DNA of 32,000 nucleotides from Thermincola sp. (GCA_032027005.1 JAVSMW010000015.1:10354-42353), one strand, 5' to 3'; shown: positions 4,311-32,000, counted from the first letter of the stretch. Made by a program: numbers and translations. The notes: generated by a model not told the origin, from the sequence alone.

Positions 4311-5048
4311 ATGATCAAGCCCGTAGCAGATTTACATATTCATACTATCAGCAGCGGCCACGCTTATAGCACGGTTGGGGAGATTTTCGATGCAGCCAGG
4401 CTTAAAGGGCTGCAGATGATTGCCATCACCGACCATGGACCGGCAATACCTGGTGGCCCGCACCTTTATCATTTTGGGAATCTGCGGGTCCTGCCCGCTG
4501 AAATAGGCGGCCTCAGGATTTTGAAAGGTGTGGAAGCCAATATCATTAATGAACAGGGAGAACTGGACATGCCGGTATCTTATCTTGAGCGGCTGGATAT
4601 TGTTCTAGCCGGATTCCACGCACCTTGTTTCCCTTCTAACGACCGCGAAATTTGTACACGGGCTATGCTGAATGCCATCAAAAACCCTTATGTAGACATC
4701 GTTGTACATCCCGGAAATCCTGAGTTTCCTGTTGATTTTGAGCAAGTTGTAAAAGCGGCCGCCGAACAGGGGGTTCCTTTGGAGCTAAATAACAGCTCAT
4801 TTTGTGGCAGCCGCCGGGGAAGTGAACATCACTGCCCTGTGGTAGCTGAGTTAATTGCCCATTACGGAGCCCTGACTGTCATTGACAGTGACGCTCATTT
4901 TGCAGGTGATGTAGGAAAATTCGACCAGGCCTTGGAAACGGTGCAAAATGCAGGTGTGCGCCCTGAGCAGGTCTTAAATACCTCGGTGGAAAAAGTTTTA
5001 AAATATTTAGCAGAAAGAAGGAATTTGCGTCAGGCAGACTTAAGATAA
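4311..5048 (+). CDS. PHP-domain metal-dependent phosphatase (YcdX-like)
   Basis: N-terminal DLHIHTISSGHAYST and ITDHGP motifs, later VHPGNP and DSDAH, typical of PHP/YcdX phosphoesterases. Strong RBS AGGAGG lies upstream. Confidence 0.8.
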   Translation: MIKPVADLHIHTISSGHAYSTVGEIFDAARLKGLQMIAITDHGPAIPGGPHLYHFGNLRVLPAEIGGLRILKGVEANIINEQGELDMPVSYLERLDIVLAGFHAPCFPSNDREICTRAMLNAIKNPYVDIVVHPGNPEFPVDFEQVVKAAAEQGVPLELNNSSFCGSRRGSEHHCPVVAELIAHYGALTVIDSDAHFAGDVGKFDQALETVQNAGVRPEQVLNTSVEKVLKYLAERRNLRQADLR

Positions 5049-6039: not shown

Positions 6040-6115
6040 TGCCATCATTTTTAGTGAAAGTAGCAAAAGATGACAAGTCATAGATTAACTGCGGGTACAT
6101 TATATAAGAGGCGGC

Positions 6116-6160
6116 AAACCCCTATGGTCGTGGGCTTCGGCCGTTAAAGGGGTTTTTGTT
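6116..6160 (+). terminator. Intrinsic terminator after glcK
   Basis: Stem aaacccct (6116-6123) / aggggttt (6148-6155), enclosing an inner GGC-ttcg-GCC hairpin, followed by a T-run. Confidence 0.7.
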
Positions 6161-6263
6161 ACTTTTTATACATTTTTTAAAATTGAATTTACAGGAAATA
6201 GAGGAAAAGATTGAAAAATACCGAATAACGTAATTTAAAGTATTTTTTATACGAGGTGATCAA

Positions 6264-7895
6264 ATGCTGAAGGGAAAGTATCCACTTAACCTGATCGAGA
6301 GGTTAGGCCTGGAGGGACACATATTTTTGAAGTTAAGTTTTAATATCAAATATGTTTTTCCTGCGATTTATGTAAGTTTATTTTCCTTTTTAGTACCTTC
6401 CGTACTGTATCAGGGAAAATGGAACAGCATGAGTACTATAGTTCTGACTGTTTCACTCATTGGACTGATAGTTAATGTTATACTGGGCAGTAAAGTTTCA
6501 GCATTGAAAAGCTTCTCGGCAATTTTACAGCCTGTTTGGGCTTATCTGACAACGATTATTTTCGGTGTGGTTTCCGGAATCAGTGTTCGTGACTGGCTTT
6601 TGGCACTGGTTTTCGTGGTTTTCGGGGCAGTATGCTGGTGGATTATCAGTGCCGGTATGGCCAATGCCCTTCGTTCGATCCTTAATGGGATAGATTTAGC
6701 CGTGAGAGACCAGAGCCAAAGAATAAACTTAAGAATTAAGCGGAATGATGAAATTGGTATACTGGCTTCTAAGTTAAACAGGTTTTTTGATGAACGGGAG
6801 AAGTATTTATCCGTAATCTCTGAACACGCCTGGGTTTTAGACGAGACAAGCCGGGACATCAACACTAATTTCCAGGCCTCCTCACAGGCCACAGAGCAGG
6901 TTGCCAACGCTGTGGAACAGGTTACCAGAGGCTCTGTGGAACAGGCCAGGCATTTATCAGAAATAGCAGAAATTATGAAGCAGGTTAGGCAGGCGGTAGA
7001 GCAGGTTGCCACAGGTGCCGGAGACCAGGGCCGGGAAATTCAGGATATTTTAGAACTTATCAAATCGATAGCCGGCAAAATGGATGAAACTTCTCAAATT
7101 CTGGTTAAGGCTAAGGAGACTACTGTTGTTAACAATCAAAATGCTCAAAATGGTGTGGATGCTGTAAAGAGAACAGAAGAAGTCATGACCCAGATAAAAA
7201 CTTCAGTTCTGCAGACAGCAGACAAGATTCGCGGTCTTGGGGAGCAATCAGAGAAAATAGGTCAGATTATTCAGGTCATAGACGATATTGCGGAACAAAC
7301 AAACCTCCTTGCTCTAAATGCTGCTATAGAGGCTGCGCGGGCAGGAGAACATGGCAAAGGTTTTGCAGTTGTGGCAGATGAGGTGCGCAAACTCGCCGAA
7401 AGGTGCAGTAAAGCGACTAAAGAGACTGCAGATTTAATTACCAGGATTCAACATGAGACTGATATAGCTGTAAAGTCCACGCAAACTGCCTCAGAGCAGG
7501 TCAAAGTGGGTGAAGCACAGGCCCAGGAAGCCCAGCTGGCTTTAAATCAAATTGTGCAAGGTGCGCAGAATTCAAGCCGAAATGCAGGCAGGACTGCTGA
7601 AATGATAGAAGAAATGCTGCAGGACAGCAAAGAAATAGAACGGGCGGTTACGAGTGTAGCAACTGTAGCAGTGCAAAATGCGGCAGTCTCCCAACAGATG
7701 ACAGCTTCCGCTGAACAAGTTGATTCAGCTGTTGGGAATATTGCCGCCACTTCACAACAAAATGCGGCCGCTGCCCAGGAAGTGGCTGCTTCCACTGTGG
7801 AGTTAAGTAATTCTGTGCAAGAAATGGCTTCCTCAAGCGAAAAGTTATCTGGTGTGTGTCAGGAACTGCGGAACCTGGTCATTAAATATAACTAA
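6264..7895 (+). CDS. Methyl-accepting chemotaxis protein with a multi-TM N-terminus and no obvious extracytoplasmic domain
   Basis: Highly conserved signalling hairpin [41 protein letters not shown]. The N-terminal ~130 aa are hydrophobic helices, followed by a HAMP-like linker. Confidence 0.9.
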
Positions 7896-9995: not shown

Positions 9996-10877
9996 ATGAA
10001 AGATATTAGGTTTGTTATTGTGACAGGACTTTCAGGGGCCGGGAAAACTCAGGCAATCCGCGGTTTGGAGGATCTGGGATTTTTTTGCGTGGACAATCTT
10101 CCGCCAACCTTGATCCCCAAATTTGCCGAGCTCTGTGCACAATCTGAAGGCAGGGTTAATAAGATAGCATTGGTGGTAGACATCAGGGGCGGCGGTTTTT
10201 TCGATTCTGTTTACGAATCCCTGGAAAGCCTTAAAAGTTTGGGTATAAAATATGAAATCCTGTTCCTGGAAGCATCTGACGAAACCTTAGTCAGGAGGTT
10301 TAAGGAATCAAGACGGAGACATCCCCTCAGTGACAAGGGGAGTACTCTCGAAGGTATTCTTAAAGAGAGGGCCAGACTCGAGGAACTGAAAGGTAAGGCT
10401 CACAAGATTATTGATACATCTAACCTTACCAATAAGCAATTAAAAGAACAGATCACTTCCATATACGGGGCCGCCAGTGGGGAGCAGAGGCTTAATATCA
10501 CCCTGATGTCTTTTGGATATAAATATGGGATCCCCCTGGATTCAGACCTGGTATTTGATGTTAGGTTTCTTCCCAACCCTTACTATATTGACGAGTTAAG
10601 ACCCCTGACAGGTAATGATTTAGAGGTTCAAAGATATGTTATGGACTCACCTGTCTGCAAAACCTTTATGCGTAAATTTTCGGGTTTGATAAATTTTTTA
10701 ATACCTCATTACATCAAAGAGGGCAAAACAAATTTAACCATAGCCATTGGCTGCACCGGCGGCCAGCACAGGTCGGTGACACTGGCCAATAAACTGGCTG
10801 AAATCCTGGATACTAAGAATTACAATGTCAATAAACGGCACCGGGATATAGAGAAATTATCTGCAGGAGTGTCATAA
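9996..10877 (+). CDS. rapZ: RNase adapter / nucleotide-binding protein RapZ (YvcJ)
   Basis: Walker [31 protein letters not shown] and C-terminal [11 protein letters not shown] motifs. Conserved rapZ-yvcK-whiA neighbourhood. Confidence 0.92.
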
Positions 10878-25360: not shown

Positions 25361-25380
25361 GATGCATGCTATGTGCATGC

Positions 25381-25494
25381 AGGTGAAAATGCCCTCTGGC
25401 TTCGTTGCGCTGGCCGACCCAATCCTCAACGTACAACTAGTACGCCTCCGGTTGGGTCGGCCAGTGCGCCTTGCCAGAGGGCATTTTCACACCT
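25381..25494 (-). repeat. Conserved-apex long hairpin, copy 1 (candidate structured RNA; strand inferred from G-U pairs)
   Basis: Arms: 17-bp perfect gtgaaaatgccctctgg / ccagagggcattttcac, plus 16-bp gcgctggccgacccaa / ttgggtcggccag(tg)cgc. The apex 25421-25453 is the reverse complement of the apex of copy 2 (31101-31135). Confidence 0.8.
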
Positions 25495-25552
25495 CTGGGT
25501 CGGAAATTTGGCCAATAATATTTATGCAAGATTCTTTGGTAACTCAGCTAAA

Positions 25553-25872
25553 TTTTTGCTTACCAGTGAATCCGAGCAGTTATTACCGTTTGCGGAAGTT
25601 TCCCTTGGGCGGCATCGTTATGAATCTTGCTGTAAAGCGGAGAGCAGCAAGCCGGGGAGTCCCCGTATGTCCGCAGACGGCGAAGGCCGCCGGGAAGTTT
25701 CGCTGGCTATAATCGCGAAATGGGAGGCGGCCCTCTCATAAGGAATGCATTCTGAGCCGTCAAGTTCGGGGACGCCGGCTTGCTGCCGGAGCTTTACAGC
25801 TAGATGAATAGATGCCGCCCTAGGAAACTGGAGCAAACGGTAATACCTGCGGTGGATTATGGTGAGCAGAAA
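25553..25872 (+). ncRNA. Candidate large structured RNA: ~320-nt rod-like imperfect hairpin with a multi-hairpin apex (unclassified)
   Basis: Perfect helices: 13 bp (25581-25593/25833-25845), 7 bp (25597-25603/25823-25829), 10 bp (25607-25616/25811-25820), 10 bp (25629-25638/25791-25800), 12 bp (25644-25655/25775-25786), 6 bp (25660-25665/25767-25772). They are separated by small internal loops. The 101-nt apex holds at least 3 local hairpins. Confidence 0.45.
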
Positions 25873-25981: not shown

Positions 25982-26371
25982 TTGTGGTTTCATGTTGATC
26001 CCTCAAGTGGAGTGCCGATATATTTACAGATACTTAACCAGGTGAAACGAGCGGCTGCTTCAGGCATGCTCAAACCCGGAGACCAGATGCCTTCGGTGCG
26101 GGAACTGGCTACTGAACTCACCGTAAACCCCAATACCATTGCCAAAGCTTATCGGGAACTGGAACGCGACGGGGTGATTAAGACAGTACGCGGTGTAGGC
26201 ACCTTCGTGGCTGAAACAGAAGTTAAAATTGTCCATGAGGAACGGGTCAAGGTTATTTATAATGCCATTGACAAAGTACTTGTCGAAGCCCATTACCTGG
26301 GATTTAACGAAAATGAGGTCAGACAGTTTATAGATGATCGCATCAGGGAATGGAAGGAGAGGAAAAAGTGA
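25982..26371 (+). CDS. GntR-family transcriptional regulator, YtrA subfamily
   Basis: IYLQILNQVKRAAASGMLKPGDQMPSVRELATELTVNPNTIAKAYRELERDGVI is a GntR wHTH, and the short C-terminal helical domain is typical of YtrA. TTG start lies 8 nt after GAGGAGG. Confidence 0.85.
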   Translation: MWFHVDPSSGVPIYLQILNQVKRAAASGMLKPGDQMPSVRELATELTVNPNTIAKAYRELERDGVIKTVRGVGTFVAETEVKIVHEERVKVIYNAIDKVLVEAHYLGFNENEVRQFIDDRIREWKERKK

Positions 26372-26529
26372 TGATGGAAATTGCTATAAAAACCAGCGAG
26401 TTAACCAAAAGCTATGCCGTCATTCAGGCTATTAATGGTCTGAATCTGCAGGTTAACAAGGGAAGTATATACGGTTTCCTGGGCCGGAATGGGGCAGGCA
26501 AAACTACTACTATCGGTAATGTTGTTTGA
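26371..26529 (+). pseudogene. ABC transporter ATP-binding protein, N-terminal 52-aa fragment ending just after Walker A
   Basis: My translation is MMEIAIKTSELTKSYAVIQAINGLNLQVNKGSIYGFLGRNGAGKTTTIGNVV followed by TGA at 26527-26529. The start overlaps the regulator stop. Q-loop, signature and Walker B are all absent. Confidence 0.75.
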
Positions 26530-26535
26530 GAAAAA

Positions 26536-28322: not shown

Positions 28323-30479
28323 ATGAAAGAAAAAGTAATGGAATTCATGAAAAGGGAAGCCTACCGTCCATTATCGGCAGCGGAATTATATAACGCCCTT
28401 GGCTTTTCTGATCATGACGGATTTTTAAAAATCCTAGAGGAACTGGAAAATGAGGGTAAGGTTATTTGCACCAGGAAAATGAAGTACGGTCTGCCGGAGA
28501 AAATGAATCTGGTAGTGGGAAAACTTCAGGGGCATGCCAATGGTTTCGGTTTCTTAATTCAGGACACACCTGGAGTGCCTGATGTGTTTATCAGTGCTGA
28601 CAACATGAACAGTGCCATGCATAACGACAGGGTAATTGCCAGGTTATTGGGGCGAAGCTGGGATGGTCCCAAACAAGAGGGAGAAATCATCAGAATCTTG
28701 TCAAGGGCCAATAAGACTATTGTGGGGACCTTTGACAGGGGAAACAGGTACGGTTTTGTCACACCAGACGAAAACCGGATCAGTACCGATATTTTTATCC
28801 CCAAGGGGCAGGAAATGAATGCCCGGACCGGTGACAAGGTAGTTGTAGAAATTACCGACTGGCCGGAGCGCCGCTGCAACCCGGAAGGGCGTATTATTAC
28901 AATAATTGGTCATAAAAATGAGCCTGGAACAGATATAGAATCTATTATCTGGAAGTTTGGCCTGCCTAAAGAGTTTCCGAAGCCTGTCTTGGCAGAGGTC
29001 GCCAAAATTCCCATGGAGGTCATTGCCGCGCAGGAGGCTGGACGCCGTAATCTCAGGGATCTTATGATGGTAACCATTGACGGTGAAGATGCTAAGGATC
29101 TTGATGATGCTGTATCCTTAGAGGTTCTGCCTAATGGCAACTTTCATCTGGGAGTCCACATTGCCGATGTTGGCAGCTATGTAACACCTGGCAGCGCCCT
29201 GGACAAAGAGGCCTATAAAAGAGGGACCAGTATTTACCTGGTGGACAGGGTGATTCCTATGCTGCCGCATGAATTATCCAATGGGATCTGCAGCCTGAAT
29301 CCGAAGGTGGATCGGCTGGCATTGTCTGTCTTCATGGAGATTGACAACAAAGGCCGGGTGCTGAGGCATGACATTTGCGAATCAGTTATCAATATCAATG
29401 AACGAATGACTTACAGTAATGTTAAAAAGATTTTGGTTGATAAGGACCAGGAACTGATTAGCAAATATGATTACCTTGTGGAAACTTTTAATTTGATGGA
29501 AAGATTGTGCCTAATTTTAAATGGGCGCAGGCTGGCACGGGGCACTGTGGACTTTGAATTTCCGGAAGTCAAGGTAAAACTTGACGAAAAAGGGCAACCC
29601 ATTGATATACTTAAATATGACCGTTCTGTTGCTGACAGGATAATCGAGGAGTTCATGCTTGTTACCAATGAAACGGTGGCCCAGCATTTCTTTGAACAGG
29701 GCGTACCTTTTGTATATCGGATTCATGAGAAGCCTGACTCTGAAAAAGTATCTAATCTTAACAGATTCCTGTTTACCTTTGGTCTTAGTATAAAAGGGTT
29801 CAATAAAATTCATCCGGGTGCTTTTCAGGAAGTCTTGAAAAAGGTTGCGGGGCGCCCAGAAGAACGAGTAATCAGCACTGTCATGCTGAGAACTATGAAA
29901 CTGGCCAGGTACAGTGAAGAAAATAGCGGTCATTTTGGGTTGGCTGCCGAACATTACTGCCATTTTACGTCCCCCATCAGAAGGTACCCGGACCTTGTTA
30001 TTCACCGGATCATCAAAGAAGTCCTGGTCAAAGGGCAGCTGCCCGGTCAGAGAAAAGATAAGCTGGCCATCTTTGTTACTGATGCGTCGATACAGTCTTC
30101 GGAACGGGAAAAGCTGGCTACTGAGGCAGAACGGGATAGTGTGGACCTTAAAAAAGTAGAATTTATGCAAAATAAAATCGGTGAGGAATATCAGGCGATT
30201 ATTTCGGGAGTTACTTCCTTTGGTATCTTTGTGGAGCTAGATAACATGGTCGAAGGTTTGGTTCACGTCACCACCATGATGGATGATTTTTACGAATATG
30301 ATGAAAATAAACTGTCTTTGACCGGGCGGCATACAGGCAGGTCCTTCCGGATTGGGGATAGTGTCAGGGTAAGACTAGAGCAGGTTAATCTTGATGAACG
30401 CAAGCTGGATTTTGAACTGGTAGAAAATGTCGACAGACCAAGTAAAATATTGGTCGGGAGCGGCATTTCTACCCCTTGA
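28323..30479 (+). CDS. rnr: Ribonuclease R
   Basis: N-terminal wHTH and cold-shock-like domains, RNB catalytic domain (TIDGEDAKDLDDAVS, HFGLAAEHYCHFTSPIRRYPDL) and C-terminal S1 domain (GVTSFGIFVEL). Confidence 0.93.
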   Translation: MKEKVMEFMKREAYRPLSAAELYNALGFSDHDGFLKILEELENEGKVICTRKMKYGLPEKMNLVVGKLQGHANGFGFLIQDTPGVPDVFISADNMNSAMHNDRVIARLLGRSWDGPKQEGEIIRILSRANKTIVGTFDRGNRYGFVTPDENRISTDIFIPKGQEMNARTGDKVVVEITDWPERRCNPEGRIITIIGHKNEPGTDIESIIWKFGLPKEFPKPVLAEVAKIPMEVIAAQEAGRRNLRDLMMVTIDGEDAKDLDDAVSLEVLPNGNFHLGVHIADVGSYVTPGSALDKEAYKRGTSIYLVDRVIPMLPHELSNGICSLNPKVDRLALSVFMEIDNKGRVLRHDICESVININERMTYSNVKKILVDKDQELISKYDYLVETFNLMERLCLILNGRRLARGTVDFEFPEVKVKLDEKGQPIDILKYDRSVADRIIEEFMLVTNETVAQHFFEQGVPFVYRIHEKPDSEKVSNLNRFLFTFGLSIKGFNKIHPGAFQEVLKKVAGRPEERVISTVMLRTMKLARYSEENSGHFGLAAEHYCHFTSPIRRYPDLVIHRIIKEVLVKGQLPGQRKDKLAIFVTDASIQSSEREKLATEAERDSVDLKKVEFMQNKIGEEYQAIISGVTSFGIFVELDNMVEGLVHVTTMMDDFYEYDENKLSLTGRHTGRSFRIGDSVRVRLEQVNLDERKLDFELVENVDRPSKILVGSGISTP

Positions 30480-30503
30480 CATCAGAAAGCTATATGCTAT
30501 AAT
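30476..30503 (+). promoter_or_regulatory. Near-consensus sigma-A promoter for smpB, overlapping the rnr stop
   Basis: TTGACA (30476-30481), 16-nt spacer, TATAAT (30498-30503) with TGc extension. Confidence 0.7.
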
Positions 30504-30544: not shown

Positions 30545-31009
30545 ATGGCTGACAGTATTAAGGTAATAACTGAAAACAGAAAAGCCCGGCACGATTTTCA
30601 TATTGAAGAAACTTTTGAAGCCGGGATTGTTCTGGCCGGTACGGAAGTGAAATCTCTGCGGGCCGGCAAAGCCAATTTAAAAGACAGTTTTGCCAGGGTT
30701 GATCATGGGGAGATATTTCTTTACAATGCCCATATCAGTCCTTATGAGCAGGGGAACAGGTTTAACCACGATCCTCTAAGGACCCGCAAGCTGTTAATGC
30801 ATGCCTTTGAAATACGCAAGCTCATTGGCAAAGTTCAGGAGAAAGGCCTTACTTTGGTGCCGCTAAAGATGTATTTCAAAAACGGCAAAGCCAAAGTCCA
30901 GTTAGCCCTGGCCAAAGGGAAAAAGCTCTATGACAAGCGAGACGACATGGCTGCCCGGGATGCGAAACGAGAAATGGAGAAGGCATTTCGGGAGAGGCAG
31001 AAAATGTAG
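30545..31009 (+). CDS. smpB: SsrA-binding protein SmpB
   Basis: [29 protein letters not shown] and RTRKLL motifs. Adjacent to tmRNA. Confidence 0.95.
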
Positions 31010-31058
31010 CTCTGAGAATGATGAATGACTTTCATTCTTACTTTAAAAGTTTTTGCTA

Positions 31059-31179
31059 GGCTGTTCAAAAGCGAGCATAGCTAGGAGCCATTTGTGTCGG
31101 AACCGGAGGCGTACTGGGTATGTACGTCGAGGATTACGGCACAAATGGCGACAACGCTAGGCGACGCTTTTCAACAGCC
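31059..31179 (+). repeat. Conserved-apex long hairpin, copy 2, between smpB and ssrA
   Basis: Outer stem 31059-31073 / 31165-31179 (14 of 15 bp). Inner stem 31087-31096 / 31140-31149 (10 bp perfect). Apex 31101-31135 is aaccggaggcgtactgggtatgtacgtcgaggatt. It ends 8 nt before the tmRNA 5' end. Confidence 0.8.
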
Positions 31180-31187
31180 GTAAACAT

Positions 31188-31537
31188 GGGGGTGTAATGG
31201 TTTCGACGGGGGAAGAATAAACACAATAAGCGAGCCGGGATCCCACAGGCCCGTTAAACAGTGGAACTTAAATTAAACGCTAAAAACGATTTAGCTTACG
31301 CAGCTTAATTGCTGCTCACCTCTCTGCTTCTGTGCTCTGTGTGAGGCAGATGAGGTCATTTAACAGAGCTGGCTGACCCCCAATTCTCGGAGGGGTGACG
31401 CGAGATTTATCGAGATAGTGAGCCGGTAGCCTGTCGGTAGGCGATTGGTGAGCGAAATTTAAAATACTCGACTACGCTCGTAGAAGGTTGTGTGGGTTCT
31501 CTTTCGGACGCGGGTTCGACACCCGCCACCTCCACCA
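31188..31537 (+). ncRNA. ssrA: tmRNA (SsrA)
   Basis: 5' GGGGGUGUAAUGGUUUCGACGGGG and 3' GGACGCGGGUUCGACACCCGCCACCUCCACCA. The acceptor stem GGGGGUG/CACCUCC has the G3-U wobble. Tag reading frame 31279-31308: gct aaa aac gat tta gct tac gca gct taa = AKNDLAYAA. Confidence 0.93.
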
Positions 31538-31610
31538 AATAATCTACCATCTATTGATAAAATTCAGTTTATTGTTGGTGGTTTTTAAATAGTCAATAAA
31601 CCCAGTATTT

Positions 31611-31646
31611 AAGCCGCTTTCGCAGGTTTTGCGAGGCGGCTTTTTT
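31611..31646 (+). terminator. Probable terminator of the ssrA transcript
   Basis: Stem aagccgctttcgc / gcgaggcggctt (imperfect), followed by TTTTTT (31641-31646). Confidence 0.6.
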
Positions 31647-31690
31647 CGTTTGCTGAAGAATTTTTGGGCGGAGTGTTTTAATAACACTGG

Positions 31691-31897
31691 TTGAATTGGT
31701 ATCAATTTGATGAAGACGCACCTGTGGAGCAAATTCTTGGTATACTCGAAACCGTCACCATCACTGATCTTGTAGTCATACGGGACAATAACCTGCTTAA
31801 CGATAGCGTGACGGCTACTGACAATGTAGTAGTAACAGGGGCAAACAACGGGGCATATTTAGCAGACACGGCTAAGGCAGACTTCTGCAGTGCTTAG
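31691..31897 (+). CDS. Hypothetical protein (68 aa), uncertain
   Basis: TTG start without a well-spaced RBS. Its stop is followed by AGGAAGGAG and a further ORF, which suggests a coupled pair. No recognisable motifs. Confidence 0.3.
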   Translation: MNWYQFDEDAPVEQILGILETVTITDLVVIRDNNLLNDSVTATDNVVVTGANNGAYLADTAKADFCSA

Positions 31898-31913
31898 GAA
31901 GGAGTGGGCGAGC

Positions 31914-32000
31914 TTGATTAATGAAAAAATTGGCATTGTTGGCCGGGTAAAGGTTAGGACATACCCGGCGCACCTTGAACAAAAAATTATACAGCTTTTT
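31914..32000 (+). CDS. Hypothetical protein, 5' part only (runs off the window)
   Basis: TTG 31914 lies 9 nt after AGGAAGGAG. The frame is open to the window end (LINEKIGIVGRVKVRTYPAHLEQKIIQLF). Confidence 0.3.
   Translation, partial: MINEKIGIVGRVKVRTYPAHLEQKIIQLF

Follow-up and report, generated by a model that had tools for sequence, protein, structure and literature searches.

A hairpin in the smpB-ssrA spacer of Thermincola sp. is probably one copy of a dispersed palindromic repeat whose apex is conserved across bacterial phyla

Hairpin MITEs, exemplified by the Correia/NEMIS elements of Neisseria, the ERIC/IRU elements of the enterobacteria and bcr1 of the Bacillus cereus group, are 100-150 nt in length, reside in intergenic regions and in operons, and are co-transcribed as long hairpins. 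Their transcripts are processed by RNase III or RNase E, which affects mRNA stability. MITEs carry conserved terminal inverted repeats, are usually accompanied by target-site duplications and do not range beyond a genus or family. REP, BIME and REPIN elements are mobilised by RAYT, a Y1 HUH transposase. REPs measure 20-40 nt and REPINs, which consist of two REPs, approximately 100 nt, and the sequence of both is species-specific (PMC6006769). REPs are often found within 15 nt of a stop codon, where they can affect translation and mRNA stability (PMC12306157).

The element considered here lies in a stretch of 32,000 nt from Thermincola sp. (hereafter the window), whose SmpB shares 92% identity with the SmpB of Phosphitispora sp. 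TUW77. An earlier note, made from the sequence of the window, had described a 121-nt hairpin with an interrupted duplex of about 45 bp, ending at 31179 and lying 8 nt from the tmRNA, as the second of two copies with a conserved apex. Our analysis bears this description out. Folding returned 44 pairs at 31059-31179, 13 of them uninterrupted, and four more, weaker pairs lengthen the stem to 31053-31183. The minimum free energy of 31040-31200, the segment whose folding the note had proposed as a check, was -67.7 kcal/mol against -42.7 +/- 3.6 kcal/mol for 200 dinucleotide shuffles (z = -6.99), none of which folded as well. ARAGORN and Rfam RF00023 agree in starting the tmRNA at 31188, leaving a gap of 8 nt (31180-31187) between this copy (copy 2) and the predicted tmRNA 5' end. 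The other copy (copy 1) was found on the minus strand at 25380-25496, so that two copies occur in approximately 42 kb of the source genome. They have the apex AACCGGAGGCGTAC..GTACGTYGAGGATT in common, and their stems differ in a compensated manner. The apex of copy 2 consists of a GCGUAC/GUACGY stem above an internal loop that is rich in purines and may form tandem G.A pairs, and both GGAGG and GAGGA are present in it. A conserved C.C mismatch (31066/31172) stands beside the A-run and T-run, which together give the element a terminator-like two-way shape. The TAG that abuts the hairpin foot is not the stop codon of smpB, which lies 49 nt upstream.

Table 1 Features of the window and of the Nitrospirota contig L133 (positions in nucleotides)
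Feature	Position	Strand	Evidence or remark
Hairpin element, copy 1	25380..25496	-	Fold z = -11.4; profile 69 bits, E = 5e-21
smpB promoter, sigma-70-type consensus TTGACA-16-TGcTATAAT	30476..30503	+	Promoter scan, 12/12
smpB	30545..31009	+	PF01668
TAG abutting the hairpin foot	31057..31059	+	Family rule: TAR directly before the element
Hairpin element, copy 2	31059..31179	+ ('E' orientation, strand of smpB and ssrA)	121 nt, 44 pairs
Outer-stem A-run (CAAAA)	31067..31070	+	Pairs with T-run 31168-31171
5' internal-loop motif NAGG (here TAGG)	31082..31085	+	Inside the second GCTAGG
Family-invariant asymmetric apex AACCGGAGGCGTAC-TGGGTAT-GTACGTCGAGGATT	31101..31135	+	Sequence and family alignment
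3' internal-loop motif AACG (here GACAACG)	31153..31156	+	Just 5' of the third GCTAGG
T-run (TTTT) 3' of the inner stem	31168..31171	+	Sequence; family consensus
ssrA (tmRNA), tag AKNDLAYAA	31188..31537	+	ARAGORN; Rfam RF00023, 193 bits
L133: element and tmRNA region	6093..6573
L133: tmRNA, tag ANADYALAA	6217..6573

Two further features flank copy 2 within the smpB-ssrA region. Directly 3' of the smpB stop codon, a small A+T-rich hairpin of nine pairs (31013-31040) precedes a T-rich stretch; it could weakly terminate or pause transcription before copy 2 is reached, and it is not conserved in the related locus L128. Directly 3' of ssrA, a prophage-like remnant (31544-32000, and L121 11147-17931) encodes a holin, an amidase and two large serine recombinases. 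The 3' end of the tmRNA gene is a classic integration site.

Copy 1 is located approximately 70 nt after the stop codon of an H+-pyrophosphatase gene, in the opposite orientation, and its orthologue is present in L128. In the subfamily to which copy 1 belongs, conservation extends beyond the hairpin into both flanks, with TCCGACCC..AGGT at one and GCATGCA at the other (25362-25381 and 25490-25505 in the window; L138, L162, L183, L219 and L228 elsewhere), and given these flanks the mobile unit may be longer than the hairpin. The GCATGC in the window is part of a small palindrome. In another metagenome contig, one member of the subfamily (L138, 4-516) follows a tmRNA gene at about 320 nt from its 3' end. 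Adjoining copy 1, an unrelated hairpin of about 300 nt (25560-25865; -168.5 kcal/mol, z = -11) found no match in Rfam, and the alignment of the window with L128 spans most of it (to 25852). At about 26350-26530 (L121 5806-5985), an ABC-transporter ATPase gene following a GntR-family regulator is called as 52-59 aa only and is probably truncated; the whole GntR/ABC/bPH_5 block is absent from L128.

Transcription of the region was evaluated with a promoter scan. The promoter that the earlier note had assigned to smpB at 30476-30503 matches the consensus perfectly, TG included, and is conserved in L128. The note had also seen no convincing promoter in the spacer, and the scan likewise found no promoter-like site between 31010 and 31187. 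Inspection by eye for an ssrA promoter inside the element, in the window, in L133 and in the relative L129, led to rejection in the window, the only passable case being the decayed remnant in L129. That remnant (10466-10552) reads GGATGTT..GAAACGAGCATAGC..AACATCC and forms by chance a -35/-10 pair (TTTAGA-17-TAACAT) just upstream of the tmRNA. The smpB promoter appears to be the only good candidate for driving smpB, hairpin and ssrA together. A spacer free of promoters behind a consensus smpB promoter suggests that the element is transcribed in a smpB-ssrA precursor, and it is plausible that copy 2 forms the 5' leader of pre-tmRNA. With at least 20 bp in the duplex (44 pairs in total, 13 of them uninterrupted), copy 2 could be read as a substrate of RNase III.

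The distribution of the element was investigated with the apex pattern CGGAGGCGTAC-N3-10-GTACGNNGAGG, searched on one strand in one genome per species (GTDB). This pattern, which is matched exactly at 31104-31132 in copy 2, occurred in at least 120 genome stretches, where approximately 10 would be expected by chance according to our own rough estimate. About six of the matches (Streptomyces, Actinomadura and similar) look like chance coding matches. The remaining matches listed belong mostly to Nitrospirota, with others in Acidobacteriota, Desulfobacterota, Methylomirabilota/Rokubacteria, Planctomycetota, Myxococcota, Spirochaetota, Synergistota and Clostridia/Peptococcaceae (Bacillota), and the apex is conserved across at least eight phyla. 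A stricter 29-base apex pattern was found in 111 metagenome stretches of many subfamilies, and the metagenome matches came from soil, sediment, rumen and human gut. A sequence profile detected 176 copies in the genome-derived loci and 302 after the metagenome loci were added. Copies reach a density of up to six per 8 kb, some of them in tandem, and approximately six additional copies per 100 kb were present around the genome-derived copies (mostly Nitrospira). In L088 (2406-6715), six copies on one strand within 8 kb include arrays of two and three in tandem, a clustering similar to that of BIMEs.

Members of the family share an architecture that extends beyond the queried pattern. The invariant, asymmetric apex (CCGGAGGCGTAC-loop-GTACGYYGAGGA) sits on a variable sub-apical stem, and the real matches have in common a CAAAA...TTTTC outer stem with a C.C mismatch and a large purine-rich internal loop that carries NAGG on its 5' side and AACG on its 3' side. 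Near-invariant columns in the alignment of 81 sequences (A2) include G37 of NAGG and A103, C104 and G108 of the AACG region. The element is typically 120-135 nt long and reaches at least 175 nt in Acidobacteriota and others. A profile from which the window and its relatives had been left out matched copy 2 from 31054 to 31183 over model positions 6-133 (53 bits, E = 4e-16) and copy 1 at 69 bits. With the apex masked, the arms of copy 2 by themselves were not significant against the profile, so the membership of copy 2 rests on the apex together with the architecture. Rfam 15 gave no match to the window copies beyond chance level, even at E <= 10, and for 13 family loci drawn from several phyla no model reached its gathering score. 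In the L133 region the models matched at E <= 1 were all tmRNA-related. The literature, in a limited check by sequence string and by topic that does not prove novelty, yielded no description of the hairpin family, and the family seems to be undescribed. The plasmid and phage collections contained no family match and the 2.9 million viral contigs only three, all near contig ends; a phage or plasmid vehicle is therefore unsupported.

Pairing within the stems was assessed in a MAFFT alignment of 81 members that was not structure-fitted, with a hairpin model taken from one Nitrospira copy. Standard pairs occupied 80.2% of the cells in this alignment, compared with 65.2 +/- 0.5% after shuffling and 35-40% when the model was slid. 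The covariation score was 0.378, while shuffled alignments gave 0.162 (none of 500 as high) and slid models at most 0.133, and changes on both sides were seen in 35 of the 44 pairs. These results demonstrate that the family stems covary and are free to change while remaining paired. The two apex pairs that adjoin the internal loop are either G.U or G-C (62/19 and 75/3), which marks one strand, termed E, and the E strand of copy 2 is the plus strand. With RNA parameters, 78 of 83 elements fold more stably as the E strand than as its complement (by a mean of -6.8 kcal/mol), and with DNA parameters 93 of 104 do so. The arms of the apex are conserved yet non-complementary at six of 12 positions, indicating that the element acts, or is recognised, as a single strand.

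The copies are found at the 3' ends of ordinary genes. An ORF on the opposite strand (convergent) stops within -19 to +5 nt of the element 3' end in 46 of 83 genome-derived cases, and in 29 of those 46 the stop coincides exactly with the CTA 3' of the outer stem (TAG 20, TAA 8, TGA 1). A same-strand ORF stop at the element 5' end was found in only 10 of the 83. The independent metagenome set gave a similar picture, with convergent-ORF stops in 21 of 36 elements against same-strand stops in six; 13 of the 36 had +/- flanks and only two lay between divergent genes. NTAG or NTAA flanks the element on one strand in 46 of 136 elements, with no fixed GTAG. The copies are flanked by housekeeping genes that are unrelated to one another. 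When the 2,093 ORFs around 120 genome-derived loci were clustered all against all, the recurrent neighbours were confined to generic ABC ATPase and TPR families. No transposase gene lay within +/-4 kb of approximately 120 genome-derived copies, and no RAYT, tnpA or tnpB was seen within +/-4-10 kb around copies. Integron attC sites were rejected as an identity for the element on the basis of these housekeeping neighbours, which offer no cassette context, and of the ends, where inspection found no RYYYAAC / GTTRRRY core sites. Likenesses to the sarcin-ricin loop, the kink-turn and the IS91 target were discarded as well, their topology or motif positions not fitting.

Comparison of filled and empty sites illustrates the turnover of the copies. 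At orthologous filled sites in Nitrospira the element is inserted exactly behind the stop codon (TAA/GGCTGC... and TAG/GGCTGG...), and a third Nitrospira genome, empty at the orthologous site, has 9 nt between the stop codon and the next start; this comparison gives no evidence of a target duplication. One subfamily has TA on both flanks, an ambiguous observation since TA also extends the palindrome. In L207 (2820-2960; identical in about 12 human-gut metagenome contigs) the element stands between dnaK and dnaJ at a distance of 12 nt from the dnaK stop codon, and the mRNA sense corresponds to its reverse complement. Another copy in the same locus (4864-5002) is partly deleted in other strains, the deletion lying between 8-nt direct repeats and removing the 5' arm and the apex. 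The family is dispersed across phyla, multi-copy and preferentially placed at gene 3' ends, directly behind TAG or TAA, and it exhibits both presence/absence polymorphism and decay by internal deletion.

These observations bear directly on the function proposed for copy 2. The earlier note had suggested that it could be a processing or stability element for tmRNA, and had specified that absence of the hairpin from the spacers of all close relatives, combined with many copies elsewhere, would indicate a mobile repeat. This is largely what was found. The same element is present at hundreds of unrelated loci in many phyla, mostly at the stop codons of ordinary genes. Five relatives with SmpB identities of 92-100% were compared at the smpB-ssrA locus. 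Only in L128 (SmpB 95%), the closest lineage, is the orthologous hairpin intact, although its GGAGG is mutated to GCAGG, and the orthologue of copy 1 is retained there too. L129 (92%) has a spacer of 87 nt in which the outer stem and part of the 5' arm survive as a remnant and the apex is deleted. The hairpin is absent from L127 (93%), whose spacer is 25 nt, and from L126 (92%), whose spacer of approximately 200 nt is unrelated in sequence. We therefore consider that copy 2 is probably one copy of a dispersed, non-coding, multi-copy palindromic repeat of the REP/MITE-like kind and not a dedicated tmRNA-processing device.

The leading competing explanation is the dedicated pre-tmRNA leader, in which the long duplex would be a processing or stability signal, for RNase III or another enzyme, that serves tmRNA maturation or the smpB:tmRNA ratio. 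We judge it unlikely. The distance of 8 nt to the tmRNA and the promoter-free spacer are in keeping with it, as is the conservation of the hairpin between the window and L128. At 91.7% identity the hairpin is the best-conserved segment of that comparison, ahead of the tmRNA (87.0%), smpB (85.6%, with 65% at third codon positions) and rnr (80.5%), while the 5' part of the spacer is unalignable at 35%. Only one of the 44-48 pairs has changed on both sides. Neutral self-correction of the palindrome would predict many two-sided changes and fails on this count, so that purifying selection is the simplest account; selection on the hairpin at the smpB-ssrA locus, beyond what a neutral passenger would show, is what the comparison of these two sequences suggests.

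A second family member close to ssrA also speaks for the dedicated leader. In L133, an unrelated Nitrospirota contig with the synteny glnD-smpB-PCYCGC-ssrA, a member of a different subfamily lies on the same strand approximately 6-12 nt upstream of ssrA. By our own rough estimate, a sample of roughly 200 independent elements, as used here, would be expected to contain about 0.03-0.06 ssrA-adjacent cases. As an independent repeat of the arrangement in the window, the L133 case appears suggestive, not conclusive. tRNA is another substrate of RNase P, and in L156 (700-1084) a copy lies 18 nt upstream of tRNA-Lys, in a tRNA cluster and on the tRNA strand. L240 (3088-3532) has a shortened copy between tRNA-Val and tRNA-Asp, again on the tRNA strand. 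Against the dedicated leader stand its absence or decay in three of four distinct relatives of the window (SmpB 92-93%) and its absence from L243 and L244, the same-synteny relatives of L133, which have a 50-nt spacer without the element. The great majority of copies abut the stop codons of protein genes, mostly in the opposite orientation, the L128 orthologue has lost the otherwise invariant GGAGG, and no RNase III-specific sequence feature is known to match.

The apex that is identical across phyla and the exact placement at stop codons imply a widely shared partner, either a transposase or a host factor. The element could be an undescribed cross-phylum device whose purine-rich apex (GGAGG/GAGGA, tandem G.A) docks a universal factor and couples the termination of translation, or the processing of precursors, to the fate of the RNA, the smpB-ssrA copy having been domesticated. 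This proposal, which we consider unlikely, would draw on the single-nucleotide placement at stop codons and on the repeated occurrence immediately ahead of RNAs that RNase P matures (the tmRNA of two phyla and one tRNA). If it were true, a domesticated leader would explain why the hairpin is conserved better than the tmRNA itself.

Quite unlikely, in our estimation, is a two-way intrinsic terminator or insulator, with smpB transcription ending at the T-run and ssrA transcribed from another start. The inner stem is flanked by a 5' A-run and a 3' T-run in nearly all members, and the location of the elements at gene 3' ends, with 13 of 36 between convergent genes, would suit such a role. However, only four T follow the stem and these are themselves paired, and the window returned no terminator call (from a scan that is blind to long interrupted stems). 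Only 16 nt separate the T-run from the tmRNA, leaving no room for a promoter, and efficient termination would silence an essential and abundant RNA. A run of four T that is so short and so near to ssrA could therefore not act as an efficient terminator without silencing the tmRNA. Copies are moreover found inside operons, in dnaK-dnaJ and in the Nitrospira gene pair that is 9 nt apart at the empty site, where strong termination would be polar. An independent sRNA gene, or a decoy for a universal factor (the 30S anti-Shine-Dalgarno or CsrA) that exposes GGAGG/GAGGA, is very improbable despite the presence of both motifs in the cross-phylum apex and the better folding of the E strand, as no promoter is conserved, the 5' flanks are unrelated between copies and most copies are antisense to the E strand relative to the abutting gene.

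The hexamer GCTAGG had drawn attention as a possible repeated contact site for a protein or RNA. The three occurrences stand where the earlier note placed them, at 31055, 31080 and 31156, and the hexamer is absent elsewhere on either strand of the 32-kb window, in which 13.9 +/- 3.7 would be expected; the clustering beyond chance is real. The contact site is not needed to account for it, as stem, loop and TAG parts suffice. The first GCTAGG (31055-31060) contains the foot-flanking TAG that is common to many family members, the second (31080-31085) consists of the last two stem bases, GC, and the family-conserved NAGG loop, and the third (31156-31161) is the stem complement GCUA followed by GG. 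The direct repeat therefore arises because the stem of copy 2 happens to be UAGC adjoining UAGG. L128 and L026, the latter a family member of a different genome, share the second and third occurrences and lack the first, which reads GCTAAG in L128.

Under the reading that we prefer, copy 2 as one copy of a dispersed repeat, the following history may be proposed. In a recent ancestor of the Phosphitispora-like lineage, a copy would have inserted behind a TAG between smpB and ssrA, and would since have been transcribed from the smpB promoter within the smpB-ssrA precursor. Maturation of the tmRNA 5' end by RNase P is well established, and this cut would remove the element from the tmRNA and leave it as a very stable 3'-terminal hairpin on the smpB mRNA. 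There it could present a barrier to 3' exonucleases, and possibly act as a partial attenuator, as other intercistronic REP-type hairpins do. A self-contained hairpin would also keep the leader from mispairing with the acceptor strand of the tmRNA. The repeat would spread or persist as a structure-constrained hairpin. In the weakest step of the proposal, spread would occur through recognition of the folded single strand by a hairpin-binding HUH-Y1 transposase of the RAYT or IS200/IS605 type, which we infer from the strand-asymmetric apex, the (N)TAG at the foot on one strand, the lack of an evident target duplication and the bias in gene orientation. Two findings weigh against a pure passenger, namely the high identity of the hairpin between the window and L128 and the L133 arrangement. 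A further point against this reading is that the element is conserved in its centre rather than its termini, the opposite of a classical MITE.

An annotation of this locus as a tmRNA leader element would be tempting but wrong, and should be replaced by that of a repeat copy, probably constituting a 3' hairpin of the smpB mRNA. Extragenic palindromes are regarded as species-specific, yet an asymmetric apex of approximately 30 nt is identical here from Bacillota to Nitrospirota and Acidobacteriota. Extrapolation from the roughly six extra copies per 100 kb suggests that Nitrospira may have hundreds of copies per genome. In many environmental genomes, terminators, sRNAs and operons could be misannotated on account of the family.

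In comparison with the known systems, the element resembles bidirectional intrinsic terminators as a stable hairpin with an A-run on one side and a T-run on the other, situated between convergent genes. It differs from them in its far greater length, in its conserved internal loops and apex, in a T-run that is paired within the outer clamp stem and in its occurrence inside operons. With the ends of IS200/IS605 elements and with PATEs it shares features of strand-specific recognition of imperfect hairpins, namely insertion 3' of a short sequence, no duplication and a bias in orientation; the hairpins of IS200/IS605 are, however, 20-25 nt long and located at two ends, whereas the element is one long hairpin with no tnpA or tnpB nearby. 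Hairpin MITEs are likewise non-coding palindromic repeats, and the element is short, non-coding, multi-copy and polymorphic for presence and absence, as a MITE should be. In place of conserved terminal inverted repeats and target-site duplications, however, it has termini that differ between lineages, an invariant centre, no evident duplication and a range that crosses phyla. REP, BIME and REPIN elements offer further parallels as extragenic, multi-copy, imperfect palindromes that are sometimes in tandem, cluster at gene 3' ends, produce no target duplication and carry a tetranucleotide at the hairpin foot on one strand (GTAG in REPs, NTAG in the element). The element differs from REPs in being a single hairpin of 120-135 nt (121 nt in copy 2) and not a palindrome of 20-40 nt or a doublet of these, and in the conservation of its apex, not its foot, across at least eight phyla, and it is not a REP as that class is defined. 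The element behaves like the REP/BIME/REPIN group and the hairpin MITEs, yet its single long hairpin and cross-phylum apex place it outside the membership of both.
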